A DNA stretch of 6,870 nt, from IMG/VR virus record IMGVR_UViG_2660238600_000004; one strand, written 5' to 3'. Of the stretch, positions 1 to 6,870 are shown one piece after another; position 1 is the stretch's first letter; each line of letters begins with the position of its first letter. Origin of the DNA: a virus. Lineage: Duplodnaviria > Heunggongvirae > Uroviricota > Caudoviricetes. Both the position numbers and the translations under genes were made by a program. The notes under the pieces are model-generated. The model was not told the DNA's origin. It worked only from the letters and a program-made list of their open reading frames with translations, and did not search any database.

Positions 1-1284
1 TTACTTCTTCGCCTCTGCAACCACTTTACTACCCACGCCGCGGTTATTGTATTCCCACATGCGGTTGTAGTTAGTGTCATTCAGATTGCGCTGTATTTCG
101 TCGTTATCATCTACGCTGCCGGTATTACCCGCAAACGGACGATTAGAGATCACCGCATCGGCCCACGGTTTAGCCGTGTTAAAACCTTCGTTGATGGCGC
201 TATCACGGATCACCACCTGACCGTTGGTATTGGCATCAACATCCAGCGAGCGGCCCAGTTGCGCCACACCATCACCGAAAGCATTGAAACGGCTGTTTAC
301 GGCGAGGAAACCGTAGTAAATGTTGGACAGCGTAGCCGGTGCAAACACATACGCTTCTTGCTGAGTACGTGAGTTCACCACGCGGAATTCGGTGTTATCG
401 AACACCACTGCGCCGCGACCAGAAACGATATCCACATCCCCTTCAATGTAGCTGTTGGTCACCAGCGTACGCGGCTGACGATTCGTTTCCAGACGGTTCT
501 GCACACCGCTGTTGGTGACAAAGAAGGTGTTCTGACGACCGAGAATGTTAACGTTGTTAATCTGTACCTGGTCACCATCAGTACGCAGTGCCACCGCCGG
601 ATGGTTACCTGCATCTACGCTATCGCCCAGCGTGTTTTCGATGGTCAGATTTTGCAGTTGCAGGCCATTGTTTTGTGACCAGAAGACCGCAGAGCAGAGA
701 ACACCGATACTGTCGCTGCGTTTGCTCTGGCAGCTATCGTACATATACCACGCTGGTTTACCTGGCATATATTTGCCGCGCGGGTTGACGTCGTGACGCC
801 AGTCGGCAGGGCTCATGCCACCATCAAGGGAAAGCCCAATCTTCACATCAATCGGTTTTTCACCTGTACCGTACAGAGTAATTCCACCCGGAGCGGCAGG
901 GACATATACCGTTCCCTGATACTCACCAGGCATCACGGCAATATACTGGCGCTTGTTGGTACGCTTGATAATTGCCGCATCTACCGCCGCCTGAATCGTG
1001 GTATGCGTTACACCTTGAGTGCCCGCCGGGCCGACAACAAAGTCAGGTTGCGCAGGCAGGGTAATCGGGGAAGGATTCCACGCTGCAGCACCTGGTGTCA
1101 GGGATGCAAAATAGTGTTGAGCATCGAAATTCTGCGCTTCTTTTGCCGACAGAATCGGGCGAGAAGAGGTACCAGGCGCGGTTTGATCAGAAGGACGTTG
1201 ATCGGGCGGGGTTGAGCTACAGGCGGTCAGCGTCACGCCAAAAGCCAATGCCAGCGCCAGACGGGAAACTGAAAATGTGTTCAC
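1..1284 (-). CDS. ybhC: YbhC-like putative lipoprotein (pectinesterase-family / acyl-CoA thioesterase-like), host chromosomal gene flanking attL
   Basis: Complete 427-aa ORF with GTG start at 1284 and stop at 1-3. N-terminus MNTFSVSRLALALAFGVTLTAC has a signal peptide and lipobox-like LTAC. Position immediately beside the lambda att core matches the known ybhC-attB-ybhB arrangement in E. coli. Identity is recalled, not searched. Confidence 0.8.
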   Translation of the reverse strand: MNTFSVSRLALALAFGVTLTACSSTPPDQRPSDQTAPGTSSRPILSAKEAQNFDAQHYFASLTPGAAAWNPSPITLPAQPDFVVGPAGTQGVTHTTIQAAVDAAIIKRTNKRQYIAVMPGEYQGTVYVPAAPGGITLYGTGEKPIDVKIGLSLDGGMSPADWRHDVNPRGKYMPGKPAWYMYDSCQSKRSDSIGVLCSAVFWSQNNGLQLQNLTIENTLGDSVDAGNHPAVALRTDGDQVQINNVNILGRQNTFFVTNSGVQNRLETNRQPRTLVTNSYIEGDVDIVSGRGAVVFDNTEFRVVNSRTQQEAYVFAPATLSNIYYGFLAVNSRFNAFGDGVAQLGRSLDVDANTNGQVVIRDSAINEGFNTAKPWADAVISNRPFAGNTGSVDDNDEIQRNLNDTNYNRMWEYNNRGVGSKVVAEAKK

Positions 1285-1330
1285 AGGTTGCTCCGGGCTA
1301 TGAAATAGAAAAATGAATCCGTTGAAGCCT

Positions 1331-1345
1331 GCTTTTTTATACTAA
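1331..1345. other. attL core: 15-bp lambda att common core (overlap region) GCTTTTTTATACTAA
   Basis: Exact 15-mer GCTTTTTTATACTAA seen at 1331-1345. It is preceded by bacterial-side sequence (tgaagcctgc) and followed by phage P'-arm sequence (gttggcattataaaaaagcattgcttatcaatttgttgcaacgaacaggtcactatcagtcaaaataaaatcatt), i.e. a B-O-P' arrangement. Confidence 0.9.
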
Positions 1346-1365
1346 GTTGGCATTATAAAAAAGCA

Positions 1366-1421
1366 TTGCTTATCAATTTGTTGCAACGAACAGGTCACTA
1401 TCAGTCAAAATAAAATCATTA
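1366..1421. promoter_or_regulatory. attL P' arm protein-binding sites: IHF H'-like site (tatcaatttgttg, about 1371-1383) and three tandem Int arm-type sites (aggtcactat / cagtcaaaat / aaaatcatta, about 1392-1421)
   Basis: Sequence matches the IHF consensus WATCAANNNNTTR and the Int arm-type consensus C/AAGTCACTAT known for the lambda P' arm. Sites lie between the core and the int stop codon (1419-1421). Confidence 0.7.
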
Positions 1422-2489
1422 TTTGATTTCAATTTTGTCCCACTCCCTGCCTCTGTCATCACGATACTGTGATGCCATGGTGTCCGACTTATGCCCGAGA
1501 AGATGTTGAGCAAACTTATCGCTTATCTGCTTCTCATAGAGTCTTGCAGACAAACTGCGCAACTCGTGAAAGGTAGGCGGATCCCCTTCGAAGGAAAGAC
1601 CTGATGCTTTTCGTGCGCGCATAAAATACCTTGATACTGTGCCGGATGAAAGCGGTTCGCGACGAGTAGATGCAATTATGGTTTCTCCGCCAAGAATCTC
1701 TTTGCATTTATCAAGTGTTTCCTTCATTGATATTCCGAGAGCATCAACATGCAATGCTGTTGGGATGGCAATTTTTACGCCTGTTTTGCTTTGCTCGACA
1801 TAAAGATATCCATCTACGATATCAGACCACTTCATTTCGCATAAATCACCAACTCGCTGCCCGGTAACAACAGCCAGTTCCATTGCAAGTCTAAGCCAAC
1901 ATGGTGATGATTCTGCTGCTTGATAAATTTTCAGGTATTCGTCAGCCGTAAGTCTTGATCTCCTTACCTCTGATTTTGCAGCGCGAGTGGCTGCGACCGG
2001 GTTTGTTGTTATATGGCCTTCAGCTATAGCCTCTCGGAATGCATCGCTCAGTGTTGATCTGATTAACTTGGCTGATGCCGCCTTTCCCTCGTCTATGTAT
2101 CCATTGAGCATTGCCGCAATTTCTTTTGTGGTGATGTCTTCAAGTGGAGCATCTGGCAGACCCCTCCTTATTGCTTTAATTTTGCTCATGTAATTTATGA
2201 GTGTCTTCTGCTTGATTCCTCTGCTGGCCAGGATTTTTTCGTAGCGATCAAGCCATGAATGTAACGTAACGGAATTATCACTGTTGATTCTCGCTGTCAG
2301 AGGCTTGTGTTTGTGTCCTGAAAATAACTCAATGTTGGCCTGTATAGCTTCAGTGATTGCGATTCGCCTGTCTCGGCCTAATCCAAACTCTTTACCCGTC
2401 CTTGGGTCCCTGTAGCAGTAATATCCATTGTTTCTTATATAAAGGTTAGGGGGTAAATCCCGGCGCTCATGACTTCGCCTTCTTCCCAT
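1419..2489 (-). CDS. int: Lambda-type integrase (tyrosine site-specific recombinase), 356 aa, apparently intact
   Basis: Complete ORF MGRRRSHERRDLPPNLYIRNNGYYCYRDPRTGKEF...REWDKIEIK, which I recognise as lambda Int. It sits directly beside attL and its start overlaps the xis 3' end, as in lambda. Confidence 0.95.
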   Translation of the reverse strand: MGRRRSHERRDLPPNLYIRNNGYYCYRDPRTGKEFGLGRDRRIAITEAIQANIELFSGHKHKPLTARINSDNSVTLHSWLDRYEKILASRGIKQKTLINYMSKIKAIRRGLPDAPLEDITTKEIAAMLNGYIDEGKAASAKLIRSTLSDAFREAIAEGHITTNPVAATRAAKSEVRRSRLTADEYLKIYQAAESSPCWLRLAMELAVVTGQRVGDLCEMKWSDIVDGYLYVEQSKTGVKIAIPTALHVDALGISMKETLDKCKEILGGETIIASTRREPLSSGTVSRYFMRARKASGLSFEGDPPTFHELRSLSARLYEKQISDKFAQHLLGHKSDTMASQYRDDRGREWDKIEIK

Positions 2490-2685
2490 TTCTGATCCTC
2501 TTCAAAAGGCTACCTGTTACTGGTCGATTTAAGTCAACCTTTACCGCTGATTCGTGGAACAGATACTCTCTTCCATCCTTAACCGGAGGAGGGAATATCC
2601 TGCACTCGCGTACCCATCGACGAACTGTTTCAAGGCTTCTTGGGCGTCGCTGGCGTGCGTTCCACTCCTGAAGTGTCAAGTACAT
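2467..2685 (-). CDS. xis: Lambda-type excisionase Xis, 72 aa
   Basis: ORF MYLTLQEWNARQRRPRSLETVRRWVRECRIFPPPVKDGREYLFHESAVKVDLNRPVTGSLLKRIRNGKKAKS matches lambda Xis. It overlaps the int start by 23 nt. Confidence 0.95.
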   Translation of the reverse strand: MYLTLQEWNARQRRPRSLETVRRWVRECRIFPPPVKDGREYLFHESAVKVDLNRPVTGSLLKRIRNGKKAKS

Positions 2686-2711
2686 CGCAAAGTCTCCGCA
2701 ATTACACGCAA
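2663..2711 (-). promoter_or_regulatory. pI-like int promoter region with a CII-type TTGC-N6-TTGC activator site (minus-strand TTGCGTGTAATTGC at 2698-2711)
   Basis: The minus strand reads TTGCGTGTAATTGCGGAGACTTTGCGATGTACTTGACAC. The TTGC-N6-TTGC motif lies just upstream of the xis ATG, so a transcript from here would begin inside xis and express int alone, as described for lambda pI. The exact -10 and start site are not determined. Confidence 0.55.
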
Positions 2712-2724
2712 GAAAAAACCGCCA

Positions 2725-2892
2725 TCAGGCGGCTTGGTGTTCTTTCAGTTCTTCAATTCGAATATTGGTTACGTCTGCATGTGCTATCTGCGCCCACAGC
2801 ATCCAGTGGTCATAGCAGTCGCTGATGTTCTCGGCTTCGATAACTCTGTTGAATGGTTCTCCATTCCATTCACCTGTGACTCGGAAGTGCAT
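2725..2892 (-). CDS. Small hypothetical protein, 55 aa (lambda orf55-like, position-conserved ORF downstream of xis)
   Basis: ORF MHFRVTGEWNGEPFNRVIEAENISDCYDHWMLWAQIAHADVTNIRIEELKEHQAA, not in the supplied track because it is under 60 aa. A GGAG motif lies 7-10 nt upstream of the ATG. Its size and spacing from xis match the orf55 I recall in lambda. Confidence 0.55.
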   Translation of the reverse strand: MHFRVTGEWNGEPFNRVIEAENISDCYDHWMLWAQIAHADVTNIRIEELKEHQAA

Positions 2893-2930
2893 TTATCATC
2901 TCCATAAAACAAAACCCGCCGTAGCGAGTT

Positions 2931-2962
2931 CAGATAAAAGAAATCCTCGTCAGTGCGAGGAT
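2931..2962 (-). terminator. Candidate intrinsic terminator for leftward transcription (7-bp stem atcctcg/cgaggat, 6-nt loop, then a U-rich tract on the minus strand)
   Basis: Inverted repeat at 2943-2949 / 2956-2962. On the minus strand it is followed by TTTCTTTTATCTG (plus 2931-2942). No folding energy was computed. Confidence 0.35.
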
Positions 2963-3134
2963 GCTGTTCATTGCTGCTATACACTTTTTTGCTCTCAACG
3001 TAAGCGGTAGCCCATTCTGTTGGGTTGGTGCAGTTGCTTTTAGGAAATGCTATTTACCCCTTAAATGTCGGCTGAAAGAGCTAAAATCCATGCAAAAAAT
3101 TTACGCAATTTTGTGTATTATTGTGCAGTAAGTA

Positions 3135-3737
3135 ATGAGCTATTTTCTGCGCAAAAAATGGATGGTAAATTTGTCCGGGTCAGGAAAAATTTTATGGGCG
3201 CTAAACATGAAAAAAGATTCGTATCCTTATTTGATTTGCATGACAGTTTCAGGGCTGATCTTTATTTTCCTTTTCTTCTGGTGGCGGGCAGATATCTACA
3301 GGGTCACGTTTCTTAATCAGAGTATATCCCACTATTACATTCTGTTTAGCATGGGAATAGCTTTTCTGTTATCTCTGTTTTGGGTTAAGAAGGGGATAGT
3401 AAAACAAAGCGGCTGGAAGAGTCTGTCAGCATACATTAAGGTTTATGCAGGGATGTGCATATTTGCTGGATTTTTTCTGATTATACCCCTTACGACACTA
3501 ACTTATTTTTTGCCTGGAGAGACATCGTCTTATGTTGCACCGTATCGGTATACTTCCGGTAGTTCAAAAAGTTGTTCTGGAGCTGAGGTGGATGACCCCG
3601 ATCTACATGAGAATATTCGCATTTGCTATCCGTATGGCAATTATGAGTACGATAATATTATCTATGTTGAAAAGAAAATTAATATATTAGGTGCGGTAGT
3701 GACATATGCACAGACCGCGCGTGATGATACTGAATGA
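3135..3737 (+). CDS. Hypothetical membrane protein, 200 aa: three predicted N-terminal TM helices plus an ~75-aa C-terminal soluble domain; AT-rich moron on the strand opposite the early-left operon
   Basis: Complete ORF. Hydrophobic stretches PYLICMTVSGLIFIFLFFWW, SHYYILFSMGIAFLLSLFWV and YIKVYAGMCIFAGFFLIIPLTTLTYFL. Base composition is visibly more AT-rich than the flanking lambda-like DNA. A hairpin terminator follows. Start codon is uncertain (in-frame ATGs at 3135, 3162 and 3207, none with a strong SD). I recognise no family. Confidence 0.6.
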   Translation: MSYFLRKKWMVNLSGSGKILWALNMKKDSYPYLICMTVSGLIFIFLFFWWRADIYRVTFLNQSISHYYILFSMGIAFLLSLFWVKKGIVKQSGWKSLSAYIKVYAGMCIFAGFFLIIPLTTLTYFLPGETSSYVAPYRYTSGSSKSCSGAEVDDPDLHENIRICYPYGNYEYDNIIYVEKKINILGAVVTYAQTARDDTE

Positions 3738-3771
3738 TATAGTATATAGCGGGCAAGTTTTAGTTAATTTA

Positions 3772-3806
3772 TCGAGGTAATATAATTTACCTCGACTCGT
3801 TTGTTC
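3772..3806 (+). terminator. Candidate intrinsic terminator downstream of the membrane-protein gene (9-bp stem tcgaggtaa/ttacctcga, loop tataat, T-rich tail)
   Basis: Perfect inverted repeat at 3772-3780 / 3787-3795, followed by ctcgtttgttctgg. It lies 35 nt after the stop codon at 3735-3737. Confidence 0.45.
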
Positions 3807-3947
3807 TGGTATTAATATTTCGCTTTACGACCGATTTTTATCTGATGATATCATGCGGTTTTCATATACTGACTTACTGTCTTTTCTCCGTTAGCGATTT
3901 TCTCCTGCTCAGCGATGATTTTATCTTTGGCTTCTAGTTAATTTCGC

Positions 3948-4169
3948 TCACTTCGAACCTCTCTGTTTACTGATAAGCTCCAGATCTTGCTGGCAACTGG
4001 CACAAGTCCGACAACCCTGAACGGCCAGTCGTCTTCGTTCATCTATCGGATCGCCACACTCACAACAATGAGTGGCAGATATAGCCTGGTGGTTCAGGCG
4101 GCGCATTTTTATTGCTGTGTTGCGCTGTAATTCTTCAATTTCTGATGCTGAATCAATTATGTCTGCCAT
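3948..4169 (-). CDS. TraR/DksA-family C4 zinc-finger protein, 73 aa (lambdoid TraR-like, Orf73-type)
   Basis: ORF MADIIDSASEIEELQRNTAIKMRRLNHQAISATHCCECGDPIDERRRLAVQGCRTCASCQQDLELISKQRGSK. The CxxC-N17-CxxC spacing and length are typical of F-plasmid TraR and phage TraR-like RNA-polymerase-binding proteins. Confidence 0.8.
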   Translation of the reverse strand: MADIIDSASEIEELQRNTAIKMRRLNHQAISATHCCECGDPIDERRRLAVQGCRTCASCQQDLELISKQRGSK

Positions 4170-4220
4170 CTTTCATTAATCCCTGAATTGTTGGTTAATA
4201 CGCTTGAGGGTGAATGCGAA

Positions 4221-4246
4221 TAATAAAAAAGGAGCCTGTAGCTCCC
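4221..4246 (-). terminator. Candidate short intrinsic terminator on the minus strand (GGAGC-5 nt-GCTCC followed by TTTTTTTATT on the minus strand)
   Basis: Inverted repeat at 4231-4235 / 4241-4245 with a run of seven A at 4224-4230 on the plus strand. The stem is only 5 bp, so this is weak. Confidence 0.3.
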
Positions 4247-4267
4247 TGATGATTTTGCTTTTCATGT

Positions 4268-4483
4268 TCACCGTTCCTTAAAGACGCCGTTCAACATGCC
4301 GATCGCCAGGCTTAAATGAGTCGGTGTGAATCCCATCAGCGTTACCGTTTCGCGGTGCTTCTTTAGTACGCTACGGCAAATGTCATCGACGTTTTTATCC
4401 GGAAACTGCTGTCTGGCTTTTTTGATTTCAGAATTAGCCTGACGGGCAATGCTGCGAAGGGCGTTTTCTTGCTGAGGTGTCAT
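4268..4483 (-). CDS. Hypothetical small protein, 71 aa (alternative upstream start at 4549 gives 93 aa)
   Basis: ORF MTPQQENALRSIARQANSEIKKARQQFPDKNVDDICRSVLKKHRETVTLMGFTPTHLSLAIGMLNGVFKER. The ATG at 4481-4483 overlaps the stop of the upstream micro-ORF (ATGA), suggesting translational coupling. No family recognised. Confidence 0.45.
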   Translation of the reverse strand: MTPQQENALRSIARQANSEIKKARQQFPDKNVDDICRSVLKKHRETVTLMGFTPTHLSLAIGMLNGVFKER

Positions 4484-4563
4484 TGAACAAGCCCCATGTC
4501 GGCAAGCATAAGCACACAGAATATGAAGCCCGCTGCCAGAAAAATGCATTCAGTGGTTGTCAT
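4480..4563 (-). CDS. Candidate hydrophobic micro-ORF, 27 aa (MTTTECIFLAAGFIFCVLMLADMGLVQ), translationally coupled on both sides
   Basis: Its ATG at 4561-4563 overlaps the orf63-like stop (ATGA) and its TGA overlaps the next ATG (ATGA). The peptide has one predicted TM-like segment. It is below the ORF-track size cutoff. It could instead be a coupling artefact, and its frame overlaps the N-terminal extension of the 93-aa version of the next ORF. Confidence 0.3.
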   Translation of the reverse strand: MTTTECIFLAAGFIFCVLMLADMGLVQ

Positions 4564-4751
4564 ACCTGGTCTCTCTCATCTGCTTCTGCTTTCGCCACCA
4601 TCATTTCCAGCTTTTGTGAAAGGGATGCGGCTAACGTATGAAATTCTTCGTCTGTTTCTACTGGTATTGGCACAAACCTGACTCCAATTTGAGCGAGGCT
4701 ATGTGCCATCTCGATACTCGTTCTTAACTCAACGGGAGATGCTTTGTGCAT
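4560..4751 (-). CDS. Small hypothetical protein, 63 aa (lambda orf63-like by size and position)
   Basis: [66 protein letters not shown]. Its length (192 nt with stop) and 28-nt overlap with the upstream ORF match the orf63/orf60a arrangement I recall for lambda. Confidence 0.55.
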   Translation of the reverse strand: MHKASPVELRTSIEMAHSLAQIGVRFVPIPVETDEEFHTLAASLSQKLEMMVAKAEADERDQV

Positions 4752-4906
4752 ACAGCTCCCCGTTTATTATTTATCTCCTCAGCCAGCCGCTGTGCTTTCA
4801 GGGGATTTCTGATAACAGAAAGGCCGGGAAATACCCAGCCTCGCTTTGTAATGGAGTAGACGAAAGTGATCGCGCCTACCCGGATATTATCGTGAGGATG
4901 CGTCAT
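4724..4906 (-). CDS. Small hypothetical protein, 60 aa (lambda orf60a-like); start chosen at the ATG overlapping the exo stop
   Basis: [63 protein letters not shown]. The track begins it two codons earlier (4912). The ATG at 4904-4906 forms an ATGA overlap with the exo stop, matching the 4-nt exo/orf60a overlap in lambda. Confidence 0.5.
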
Positions 4907-5583
4907 CGCCATTGCTCCCCAAATACAAAACCAATTTCAGCCAGTGCCTCGTCCATTTTTTCGATGAACTCCGGCACCATCTCGTCAAAACTCGCCATGT
5001 AATTTTCATCCCGCTCAACCACGACATAATGCAGGCCTTCACGCTTCATTCGTGGGTCATAGTTGGCAAAGTACCAGGCATCTTTTCGCGTCACCCACAT
5101 GCTGTACTGCACCTGGGCCATGTAAGCCGACTTTATGGCCTCGAAACCACCGAGCCGGAATTTCATGAAATCCCGGGAGGTAAACGGGCATTTCAGCTCA
5201 AGGCCATTGCCGTCACTGCATAAACCATCGGGAGAGCAGGCGGTGCGCATACTTTCGTCGCGATAGATGATCGGGGATTCAATAACATTTACGCCGGAAG
5301 TGAACTCAAACAGGGTTCTGGCGTCGTTCTCGTACTGTTTTCCCCAGGCCAGCGCTTTAGCGTTAACTTCCGGAGCCACACCGGTGCAAACCTCAGCCAG
5401 CAGGGTGTGGAAGTAGGACATTTTCATGTCAGGCCACTTCTTTCCTGATCGGGGCTTTGCTATCACGTTGTGAACTTCTGAAGCGGTGATGACGCCGAGC
5501 CGTAATTTGTGCCATGCATCATCCCCCTGTTCGACAGCTCTCACGTCGATCCCGGTACGCTGCAGGATAATGTCCGGTGTCAT
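4903..5583 (-). CDS. exo: Lambda exonuclease (Red-alpha, 5'-3' dsDNA exonuclease), 226 aa, intact
   Basis: [71 protein letters not shown]...[10 protein letters not shown], recognised as lambda Exo. Its start overlaps the bet stop in ATGA fashion. Confidence 0.95.
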
Positions 5584-5774
5584 GCTGCCACCTTCTGCTC
5601 AGTGGCTTTCTGTTTCAGGAATCCAAGAGCTTTCACTGCTTCGGCCTGTGTCAGTTCTGACGATGCGCGAATGTCGCGGCGAAATATCTGGGAACAGAGC
5701 GGCAATAAGTCGTCATCCCATGTTTTATCCAGGGCAATCAGCAGAGTGTTAATCTCCTGCATGGTTTCATCGTT
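5580..5774 (-). pseudogene. bet: 3' fragment of bet (Red-beta), C-terminal ~64 codons only; N-terminal ~200 codons absent
   Basis: The minus frame reads ...[64 protein letters not shown], matching the lambda Bet C-terminus as I recall it. Immediately upstream the frame reads SYPAQPS after a stop at 5796-5798, instead of the Bet sequence (..ERDITPV..). Homology therefore ends near 5775. Confidence 0.8.
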
Positions 5775-5797
5775 ACTTGGTTGAGCAGGATAGCTTC

Positions 5798-5980
5798 ATG
5801 GCTAGGTTGGCTGAAATGGAAAAGGAACTCAGTGAGGCAAAACAGGCTGTCATTCTCAACGCACCACGCCACCAGAAACTGAAGGAAATTAGTGAAGGTA
5901 TTGTGTCGATGTTTCGTGTGGACCCAGATCTGGCTGGTCCATTGATGGCGATGGTTACTACCATGCTGGGGGCGATATGA
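5798..5980 (+). CDS. Hypothetical small protein, 60 aa (MARLAEMEKELSEAKQAVILNAPRHQKLKEISEGIVSMFRVDPDLAGPLMAMVTTMLGAI); possibly a remnant of a gene upstream of O
   Basis: ORF with AGGA 7 nt upstream of the ATG at 5798. The track starts it at a TTG at 5777. It lies exactly at the bet truncation joint. No HTH or known family recognised. Confidence 0.3.
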   Translation: MARLAEMEKELSEAKQAVILNAPRHQKLKEISEGIVSMFRVDPDLAGPLMAMVTTMLGAI

Positions 5981-6066
5981 CAGGTTCAGAAATGGCGAAA
6001 GCCGGTCTGCTGGAACAGAACCGACTTTCAGGTGCAAATCGTAACACACTCATTGCGGGAGGAATT

Positions 6067-6870
6067 ATGGCAAACACTGCTGAGATATTCAATTTTCCAG
6101 TGCCGGATGCGGCACAAAAGGAGCCGCGCGTGGCAGATCTCGATGATGGTTATACGCGCATTGCAAATGAGTTGCTGGAAGCTGTGATGCTGGCCGGATT
6201 AACACAGCACCAGCTTCTGGTCTTCCTAGCTGTCATGCGCAAAACATATGGCTTTAATAAAAAACTGGATTGGGTGAGCAACGAGCAACTGTCCGAATTG
6301 ACCGGGATATTGCCGCACAAGTGTTCTGCTGCAAAAAGTGTTCTGGTAAAGCGTGGGATTCTTATTCAGAGCGGGCGGAATACCGGCATTAATAATGTGG
6401 TCAGTGAATGGTCAACATTACCCGAATCAGGTAAGAAAAATAAAGTTTACCTGAAAGAGGTAAATTTACCTGAATCAGGTAAAAAAAGTTTACCCAAATC
6501 AGGTAAAGACGTTTACCCGAATCAGGTAAACACAAAAGACAAACTAACAAAAGACAATATAAAACCTTTTTCGTCCGAGAATTCTGGCGAATCCTCTGAC
6601 CAGCCAGAAAACGACCTTCCTGTGGAGAAACCAGATGCTGCAATTCAGAGCGGCAGCAGGTGGGGGACAGCAGAAGACCTGACCGCCGCAGAGTGGATGT
6701 TTGACATGGTGAAGACCATCGCGCCATCAGCCAGAAAACCGAATTTTGCAGGGTGGGCTATACCGCCAGCTTGGTTGATAAAAAATGGTTGCGACTGGCA
6801 GCAAGGAGGAGTCATGGCTGATTTGAGAAAAGCAGCGCGTGGTCGGGAATGCCAGGTAAGAATCCCTGGC
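6067..6870 (+). CDS. Lambdoid O-family replication initiator (N-terminal iteron-binding domain plus internal origin); 3' end not defined in window
   Basis: GGGAGGA SD at 6056-6062 and ATG at 6067. Translation MANTAEIFNFPVPDAAQKEPRVADLDDGYTRIANELLEAVMLAGLTQHQLLVFLAVMRKTYGFNKKLDWVSNEQLSELTG...VSEW parallels the lambda O N-terminus (MTNTAKILNF...VADLDDGYARLSNMLLEA...LRKTYGWNKPMD...SQLSEIT...ISEW). The frame stays open to the window end. Sequence after about 6755 appears to derive from ninE/ybcO-like DNA, so the native 3' end is probably missing. Confidence 0.8.
   Translation, partial: MANTAEIFNFPVPDAAQKEPRVADLDDGYTRIANELLEAVMLAGLTQHQLLVFLAVMRKTYGFNKKLDWVSNEQLSELTGILPHKCSAAKSVLVKRGILIQSGRNTGINNVVSEWSTLPESGKKNKVYLKEVNLPESGKKSLPKSGKDVYPNQVNTKDKLTKDNIKPFSSENSGESSDQPENDLPVEKPDAAIQSGSRWGTAEDLTAAEWMFDMVKTIAPSARKPNFAGWAIPPAWLIKNGCDWQQGGVMADLRKAARGRECQVRIPG
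6417..6530. repeat. Replication-origin iterons: five ~19-bp direct repeats, consensus TTTACCYRAATCAGGTAAA, each an internal dyad (TTTACC..GGTAAA)
   Basis: Copies at about 6417-6435, 6446-6464, 6465-6483, 6489-6507 and 6512-6530, all inside the O-like coding frame. They encode a repeated LPESGKK-like peptide. Layout is as in ori-lambda but the repeat sequence differs. Confidence 0.8.
6531..6590. other. AT-rich tract immediately after the iterons (candidate DNA-unwinding region of the origin)
   Basis: cacaaaagacaaactaacaaaagacaatataaaacctttttcgtcc is strongly A/T-rich. Its position relative to the iterons mirrors ori-lambda. Confidence 0.6.
6756..6821 (+). pseudogene. ninE-like 3' fragment (reads ..GYTASLVDKKWLRLAARRSHG-stop); no in-frame start codon upstream
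   Basis: The frame ending in TGA at 6819-6821 gives a C-terminus I recall from prophage NinE proteins. The same frame has a stop at 6702-6704 and no ATG after it. The stop overlaps the next ATG (ATGGCTGA). Identity is from memory. Confidence 0.4.
6814..6870 (+). CDS. YbcO-like (DUF1364, cysteine-rich putative nuclease of the nin region) protein, 5' end only; continues beyond window
   Basis: Strong SD AAGGAGGA at 6802-6809 and ATG at 6814. MADLRKAARGRECQVRIPG matches the N-terminus I recall for E. coli DLP12 YbcO. Confidence 0.5.
   Translation, partial: MADLRKAARGRECQVRIPG

Follow-up and report, generated by a model that had tools for sequence, protein, structure and literature searches.

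With a probability that we put at about 0.9, positions 6590–6870 of the analysed DNA (the window, 6,870 nucleotides in all) are an internal deletion scar in a defective lambdoid prophage at att-lambda. The open reading frame (ORF) that crosses the scar consists of a truncated replication gene O (O′), a linker and ybcO, and it belongs to the same reading as an accidental by-product of the deletion. A second deletion of the C-terminal part of O, gene P and most of the nin region had been proposed in the first-pass annotation of this DNA. Comparison with the intact prophage of Escherichia coli MSI001 bears this out, as 3,345 bp are absent from the window at this point.

The window comprises a complete ybhC gene (1–1284, minus strand) and a defective lambdoid prophage of E. 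coli. An exact copy of the lambda att core lies between ybhC and int, which places the prophage at att-lambda; the coordinates of this and the other features are collected in Table 1. A megablast search with the whole window found an intact prophage at the same locus in many E. coli strains. The best match, strain MSI001 (L002), covers the entire window in three collinear pieces spread across 13.9 kb. Thus, the prophage in the window is a lambdoid prophage at att-lambda from which two internal segments have been lost. When the whole window was compared with Rfam, no family reached its gathering score. Among the minus-strand early-left genes there is also an ORF for a hydrophobic protein of 200 aa on the plus strand (3135–3737). 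It is followed by a terminator-like hairpin (3772–3795), is annotated as hypothetical in MSI001 and looks moron-like.

Table 1. Coordinates of the main features of the window, and left breakpoints in O of the window and of four other degraded prophages (O nucleotides are counted from the long ATG)
Feature	Position	Strand	Remarks
Lambda att core GCTTTTTTATACTAA	1331–1345		between ybhC and int; exact match; attL
Lambda-type integrase	1419–2489	minus	
Excisionase and early-left genes			after integrase, before exo
exo	4903–5583	minus	
bet remnant	5580–5775	minus	
Deletion junction 1	5772–5775		microhomology GTTA; 3′ part of bet joined to 3′ part of the ydaT/cII-position gene
ydaT (cII-position) remnant	5772–5980	plus	followed by replication gene O on the plus strand
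O′	5977–6760	plus	first 784 nt of O, a lambdoid replication-initiator gene; collinear with intact copies
Replication origin inside O′	6418–6561		five iteron-like repeats TTACCNGAATCAGGTAA and an adjoining A/T-rich repeat; repeat families D1–D3
Deletion junction 2	6756–6760		left parent O ends ...GGGCTA at 6760; right parent ninE GGaTATACC
ninE 3′ remnant	6759–6821	plus	last 20 codons and stop 6819–6821 (63 nt); without start codon
ybcO Shine–Dalgarno sequence AAGGAGGAG	6803–6811	plus	native, within the ninE remnant
ybcO, first 19 codons	6814–6870	plus	DUF1364/YbcO; ATG 6814–6816; complete (96 codons) in L019
Left breakpoint, window	O nt 784; window 6760		joined to ninE
Left breakpoint, L022	O nt 784; L022 6001–6753		joined to mid-rusA; DLP12/argU site
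Left breakpoint, L020	O nt 790; L020 6001–7023		joined to MT-A70 remnant
Left breakpoint, L025	O nt 529; L025 5149–5847		joined to mid-ybcO
Left breakpoint, L026	O nt 530; L026 6001–6885		joined to ybcO end and rusA

The second junction, between O and ninE, was located by blastn against intact relatives, which puts the breakpoint at 6758–6760. The match to O ends at 6760 in 2,161 complete genomes as well as in many phages, and the match to ninE–ybcO begins at 6755 or 6756 in about 3,500 genomes and is exact from 6759. In MSI001 coordinates, window positions 5772–6760 correspond to L002 10965–11953 and positions 6756–6870 to L002 15294–15408. Base by base, the O parent reads ...GGGCTA/ACGATA and the ninE parent ...GGaTA/TACCGCC. 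A three-way comparison with both parental sites in L002 reveals that the parents share exactly TA (6759–6760), or four of the five positions in GGnTA.

In MSI001, the missing interval contains the final 78 codons of O as well as P, ren, a tagO-like gene, a small ORF, ybcN and nucleotides 1–108 of ninE (its first 36 codons). The corresponding interval is longer in other relatives (about 6.9 kb in strain S21), so the exact size of the loss depends on the ancestor. In MSI001 one prophage, at the same att site, contains both the O flank and the ninE–ybcO flank, with 3,345 bp between them. The window therefore has the make-up of a deletion scar: its flanks are collinear with one intact relative, the middle segment is absent and the join shows microhomology only. 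Positions 6590–6760 align collinearly with O and the following positions with ninE–ybcO. Intact O genes differ from the window beyond 6760.

The first-pass annotation had also described a NinE-like C-terminal frame from about position 6756. Its identity stands, since the frame reads GYTASLVDKKWLRLAARRSHG before the stop and NinE of the intact prophage ends in ...LLGYTASLVDKKWLRLAARRSHG; its start is tightened to 6759, with the match running from 6756. The remnant is 100% identical to ninE of MSI001 and K-12 from 6759. As had been noticed, the frame is closed upstream by a TGA at 6702–6704 and contains no ATG. NinE is thus incomplete here, with 20 codons left of a 56-codon ORF. The described overlap of the ninE stop with the ybcO ATG and the strong Shine–Dalgarno sequence in front of it are both present, and intact ninE–ybcO pairs have the same layout, with an 8-nt gene overlap.

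From ATG 6067 the O frame remains open to the end of the window, reading ...KPNFAGWA, then IPPAWLIKNGCDWQQGGV, then MADLRKAARGRECQVRIPG. The 18-residue linker in the middle is encoded by positions 6761–6813 and represents the ninE remnant translated out of phase. The ybcO ATG is in phase with O, as had been claimed (6814 − 6067 = 747 = 3 × 249). Entry into the ninE remnant is possible in three phases, which lead in frame into ybcO, into an O–NinE tail or to an immediate TGATAA. As one of the three enters ybcO in frame, the chance of such a read-through is about 1 in 3 and is unremarkable by itself.

A first homology search returned no cluster representative that crosses the junction, and the truncated translations of the window had no exact entry in the protein collection. 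For an exact look-up, the expected product was assembled from O starting at ATG 5977, the 18-residue linker and a K-12-type YbcO. The resulting 375-aa sequence is present in a collection of 15 billion proteins, within a YbcO cluster. Its ORF is carried by one contig of 3,432 bp, CBDHMR010000221.1 (L019; NCBI assembly GCA_965264705.1). Bases 1–3175 of this contig are 100% identical to window positions 3696–6870, and a further 257 bp extend beyond the window. There, the ORF in the O frame terminates at the usual ybcO stop, which overlaps the start of rusA, and the contig ends 23 nt later. The extension past 6870 that had been suggested as a check thus gives the frame its end. Counted from ATG 6067 the ORF has 345 aa and from ATG 5977 it has 375 aa, both lengths using the end read from this second contig, which may share the lineage of the window. 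The two contigs start and end at different places, so the join has come out of at least two assemblies.

In the ORF completed from L019, Pfam recognizes Phage_rep_O (PF04492) at residues 51–145 (E 2.6e-34) and YbcO (PF07102) at residues 282–372 (profile positions 2–92 of 92, E 1.5e-41). Both domains occur in a single predicted product that runs through the full ybcO, in agreement with the O–YbcO chimeric ORF of the first-pass annotation. The NinE and YbcO termini had been identified correctly in that annotation: the former is the NinE end of the intact prophage, and the YbcO sequence used in the construct aligns with PDB 3G27 across its 96 residues (E 7e-64). The fold of YbcO is listed as a His-Me finger nuclease fold, from which nuclease activity is predicted (PMC5714182).

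O′ has a start at the lambda-equivalent ATG 6067 and an in-frame upstream ATG at 5977, which overlaps the ydaT stop and is the start picked by gene callers in intact homologues. The truncated gene is 97–98% identical to annotated replication proteins. It keeps residues 1–231 of 309 (1–261 of 339 in the long form), which cover the Phage_rep_O origin-binding domain, the linker and a portion of the C-terminal domain. The match to O breaks off at nucleotide 784 of 1,020, which leaves the C-terminal domain incomplete by the 78 codons mentioned above. The C-terminus of O is the part that interacts with P. Gene P itself does not lie downstream of O′; it belongs to the absent 3,345 bp, and in L019 rusA directly follows the ORF.

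The five iteron-like copies of the replication origin span 6418–6534, and their position and form agree with those described for the ori-lambda iterons (PMC3349717). The orphan origin (6418–6561) persists in the truncated gene despite the deletion of P. The number of iterons differs among public O alleles (P0006, P0010–P0012, P0016, P0059, P0062 and P0013): some contain fewer copies of the LPESGKK unit, one contains nine, and internal deletions or duplications that keep the frame are seen in others, as expected from slippage in origin repeats. Just within the 5′ end of O, a promoter-like site on the minus strand (6092–6064, TTGAAT-17-CATAAT with TG) points leftward and is followed on the same strand by a strong hairpin (about 6037–6005, RNA fold z −2.2). 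The position of this pair is reminiscent of lambda pO/oop. Rfam gave no match to the oop-like element, and related phages carry no annotation there.

The earlier deletion that the first-pass annotation had implied corresponds to junction 1. In MSI001 coordinates it removed 3,693 bp with the 5′ end of bet, gam, kil, a bamE-like gene, the S24 repressor gene (cI), a cro-like gene and the 5′ end of ydaT. As the loss extends from the 5′ end of bet through that of ydaT, PL and PR are gone, and the loss of PR leaves the fusion without its native promoter. A crude consensus scan of 5400–6870 detected no sigma-70-like promoter on the plus strand, which leaves room for weak or read-through transcription; further upstream of 5400, the scan found weak sigma-70-like sites only. 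Since ybcO keeps its own Shine–Dalgarno sequence and ATG, any transcript would permit the separate synthesis of YbcO. A chimeric protein is therefore a prediction from the ORF, in a setting where PR has been lost and ybcO has a ribosome-binding site of its own. The bet and ydaT remnants, of 60 aa each, were also used as queries. Neither junction was present in any of the 16 loci returned, and the two remnant peptides proved common to many differently degraded prophages.

At least 120 IMG/VR contigs contain the intact version of the region, and in every usable copy (119/119) collinearity extends to the end of O. Among 5,426 complete E. coli genomes, none has junction 2 and none has a contiguous junction 1. 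The exact 40-mer across junction 2 had no match in the GTDB species representatives. The same was true of a broader pattern covering the join, GGGCTA followed by a base other than A (intact O has A), in GTDB, IMG/VR and JGI metagenomes. Elsewhere, junction 2 was found in one other contig, L019, by way of the 15-billion-protein collection. The retained O′ shows no difference from the intact O alleles of several strains (100% identity; H2–H9). From 6759 on, the right flank does not differ from MSI001 or K-12 (99.1% similar to both K-12 DLP12 and MSI001). The identity of the retained parts to intact alleles and the restriction of the join to one lineage point to a recent, lineage-specific event. 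Judged from these sequences, the deletion is recent, is confined to one lineage and has seen no decay since.

In E. coli genomes, the ninE–ybcO module occurs at a median of 2 sites, with a maximum of 7. The window (at 6870) and L019 (at 3432), which both contain the junction, break off within the ninE–ybcO–rusA module. Contig ends in this module suggest a break of short-read assembly within a repeat.

Independent O′ fusions are present in other degraded E. coli prophages, where O is joined to the middle of ybcO, to rusA, to an MT-A70 remnant or to P. These chimeras were drawn from the top of one score-ranked homology list and four were mapped on the DNA (Table 1), which makes for a small sample. 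O nucleotides 529–530, at about window position 6505 in iteron 3, are the breakpoint of two events mapped on DNA. In three further proteins the break follows KSLPKSG(K), and the partner differs each time; in P0003, P0008 and P0030 the break in O lies elsewhere. The clustering of the breakpoints exceeds our own chance expectation; with a sample that is small and score-ranked, we regard this as an unexplained pattern and not as a finding. DNA folding at the breakpoint at nt 784 gave no unusual structure (z +0.8), and a hairpin-driven hotspot is thus unsupported. We also considered whether the L022 junction could be a secondary deletion of the arrangement seen in the window. This was rejected, as the predicted joint is off by 2–3 nt and the att site is different.

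Could the O–ninE join be an artefact of assembly, that is, a chimeric contig end made from the ninE–ybcO–rusA repeats of co-resident prophages? The window does stop 110–112 nt past the join and L019 23 nt past the ybcO stop, both within the repeated module, and repeated modules are typical break points of short-read assemblies. However, a graph assembler joins sequences only through long k-mers that they share, and the parents have 2–5 nt in common. Moreover, the same join appears in two contigs with different ends, both of its sides are 100% identical between these contigs, and the ORF was called. We hold an artefact to be very improbable. The multi-copy nature of the ninE–ybcO module (median of 2 places per genome) also bears on a rearrangement between prophages, in which O at att-lambda would have been joined to ninE of another prophage, for example one at the DLP12 site, so that the join would mark the end point of a duplication or inversion and not a simple internal deletion. 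Consistent with such an exchange, the right flank is equally similar to K-12 DLP12 and MSI001 (99.1%), and a DLP12-site prophage in strain S21 has an O gene that matches O′ at 100% identity, which indicates that modules move between such prophages; the contig reaching furthest to the right, L019, extends 257 bp past the window. In the intact relative, however, a single prophage contains both flanks with order and orientation unchanged and 3.3 kb between them, so a simple deletion needs one event and is more economical. Joining in direct orientation to a prophage that lies upstream would need a duplication of about 240 kb, as estimated from the K-12 map. A rearrangement between prophages seems unlikely to us.

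The fusion itself might instead have been selected, if the O origin-binding domain directed the YbcO nuclease fold against the iteron DNA of phages of the same O type, or if the O′/iteron segment excluded such phages. One ORF indeed combines a sequence-specific DNA-binding domain with a nuclease fold (PMC5714182). The iterons and the oop-like minus-strand promoter and hairpin have been kept, plasmids with oop and iterons 3–4 exclude rep-lambda phages (PMC3349717), and the same O allele occurs in active phages. Turner, PhiR5_1, PhiR34_1 and PhiR68_2 are among the phages with this O allele. Set against this are the single lineage with zero divergence since the event, the missing native promoter, the prior of about 1 in 3 for an in-frame outcome and a linker made of out-of-frame junk. 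An active fusion would also attack the iterons in its own gene, and the other O′ chimeras are singletons with unrelated partners. Selection for the fusion is, in our estimate, highly unlikely. Two readings that do not exclude each other can also be taken jointly: a fusion expressed at a low level that acts on the origin or excludes phages, and breakpoints in O that are deletion hotspots. Exclusion of lambdoid phages of the same type is possible through an origin-targeted nuclease or through a fragment of O with a dominant-negative effect, with or without a contribution from the iterons and the oop-like element. Hotspots are possible at O nt 784–790 (three independent events) and at nt 529–530 in iteron 3 (at least five), with different right partners. 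Taken together, we give the two a small chance.

These considerations leave an internal deletion within one prophage as the preferred reading. We propose that the join of O nt 784 to ninE nt 109, with its loss of about 3.3 kb, arose illegitimately at a microhomology of 2–5 nt, probably through end joining or slipped replication. Its phase keeps the O frame open across 18 out-of-frame ninE codons and on into ybcO. The resulting ORF comprises the O origin-binding domain, the linker and a partial C-terminal domain, 18 junk residues and a full-length YbcO. With P gone and the C-terminus of O missing, the element can no longer replicate, and there is no initiation from the retained origin. Both deletions combined, the other of which took cI, cro, PL and PR, make this a grounded prophage. 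Any YbcO would most likely come from the retained Shine–Dalgarno sequence and ATG of ybcO itself, and we infer that the fusion is without function. The loss of O and P may have been neutral or favoured, as it would avoid replicative killing and the toxicity of P. Induction of a trapped lambda prophage is lethal through initiation at ori-lambda, and in the few cells that survive, O or P has suffered an insertion or deletion (PMC3640518). In addition, P has a toxic effect in trans (PMC3640518; PMC4926192).

The scar is a case of ordinary prophage decay and not a new system; it is a new instance of a well-known type of event. For annotation, this means that the "replication protein–YbcO" ORF of 345 or 375 aa is best treated as a fusion pseudogene made by deletion and not as a new two-domain family. 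The prophage as a whole is properly labelled replication-defective and repressor-less. It offers a clean, datable case of how lambdoid prophages are grounded by O–P deletions at short microhomologies. Beyond this case, the sole wider question is whether deletions of this kind strike preferred sites in O repeatedly.

Among known systems, nin5-type deletions of lambda take out about 3 kb of the stretch that separates Q from the replication genes, together with genes of the nin region, while O and P stay intact and the phage remains viable. The deletion in the window has a similar size of about 3 kb, but it begins inside O, takes P and ends inside ninE. The cryptic prophage DLP12 of K-12 (ybcN–ninE–ybcO–rusA–ylcG–quuD) has a ninE 3′ end and ybcO 5′ end identical to window positions 6759–6870, with the same 8-nt ninE/ybcO overlap and Shine–Dalgarno sequence. 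Both are grounded lambdoid prophages. DLP12, however, sits at argU, retains the whole of ninE and is not known to carry an O remnant, whereas the prophage in the window sits at att-lambda and has 20 codons of ninE joined to O′.

In its outcome, the event resembles the replicative-killing-resistant (RK-) deletion and insertion mutants in O or P of the Hayes laboratory, in which loss of O or P function in a trapped lambda prophage abolishes the lethal initiation at ori-lambda (PMC3640518); the prophage in the window has lost P and the C-terminus of O. The RK- mutants are lambda derivatives selected in the laboratory, whereas the event described here is natural, PR and cI are gone as well and selection would be a matter of inference. 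Further parallels are the other accidental O′ fusions of degraded prophages: an O–YbcO C-terminal part (P0034), O–RusA (P0043), an O–MT-A70 remnant (P0001), O joined out of frame to rusA (P0017) and O–P (P0003, P0008, P0030 and P0053). Like the window, they involve the same O allele family, and P is wholly or partly deleted. Their partners and hosts are different, and the version in the window is the only one that has a complete YbcO with its own ribosome-binding site.
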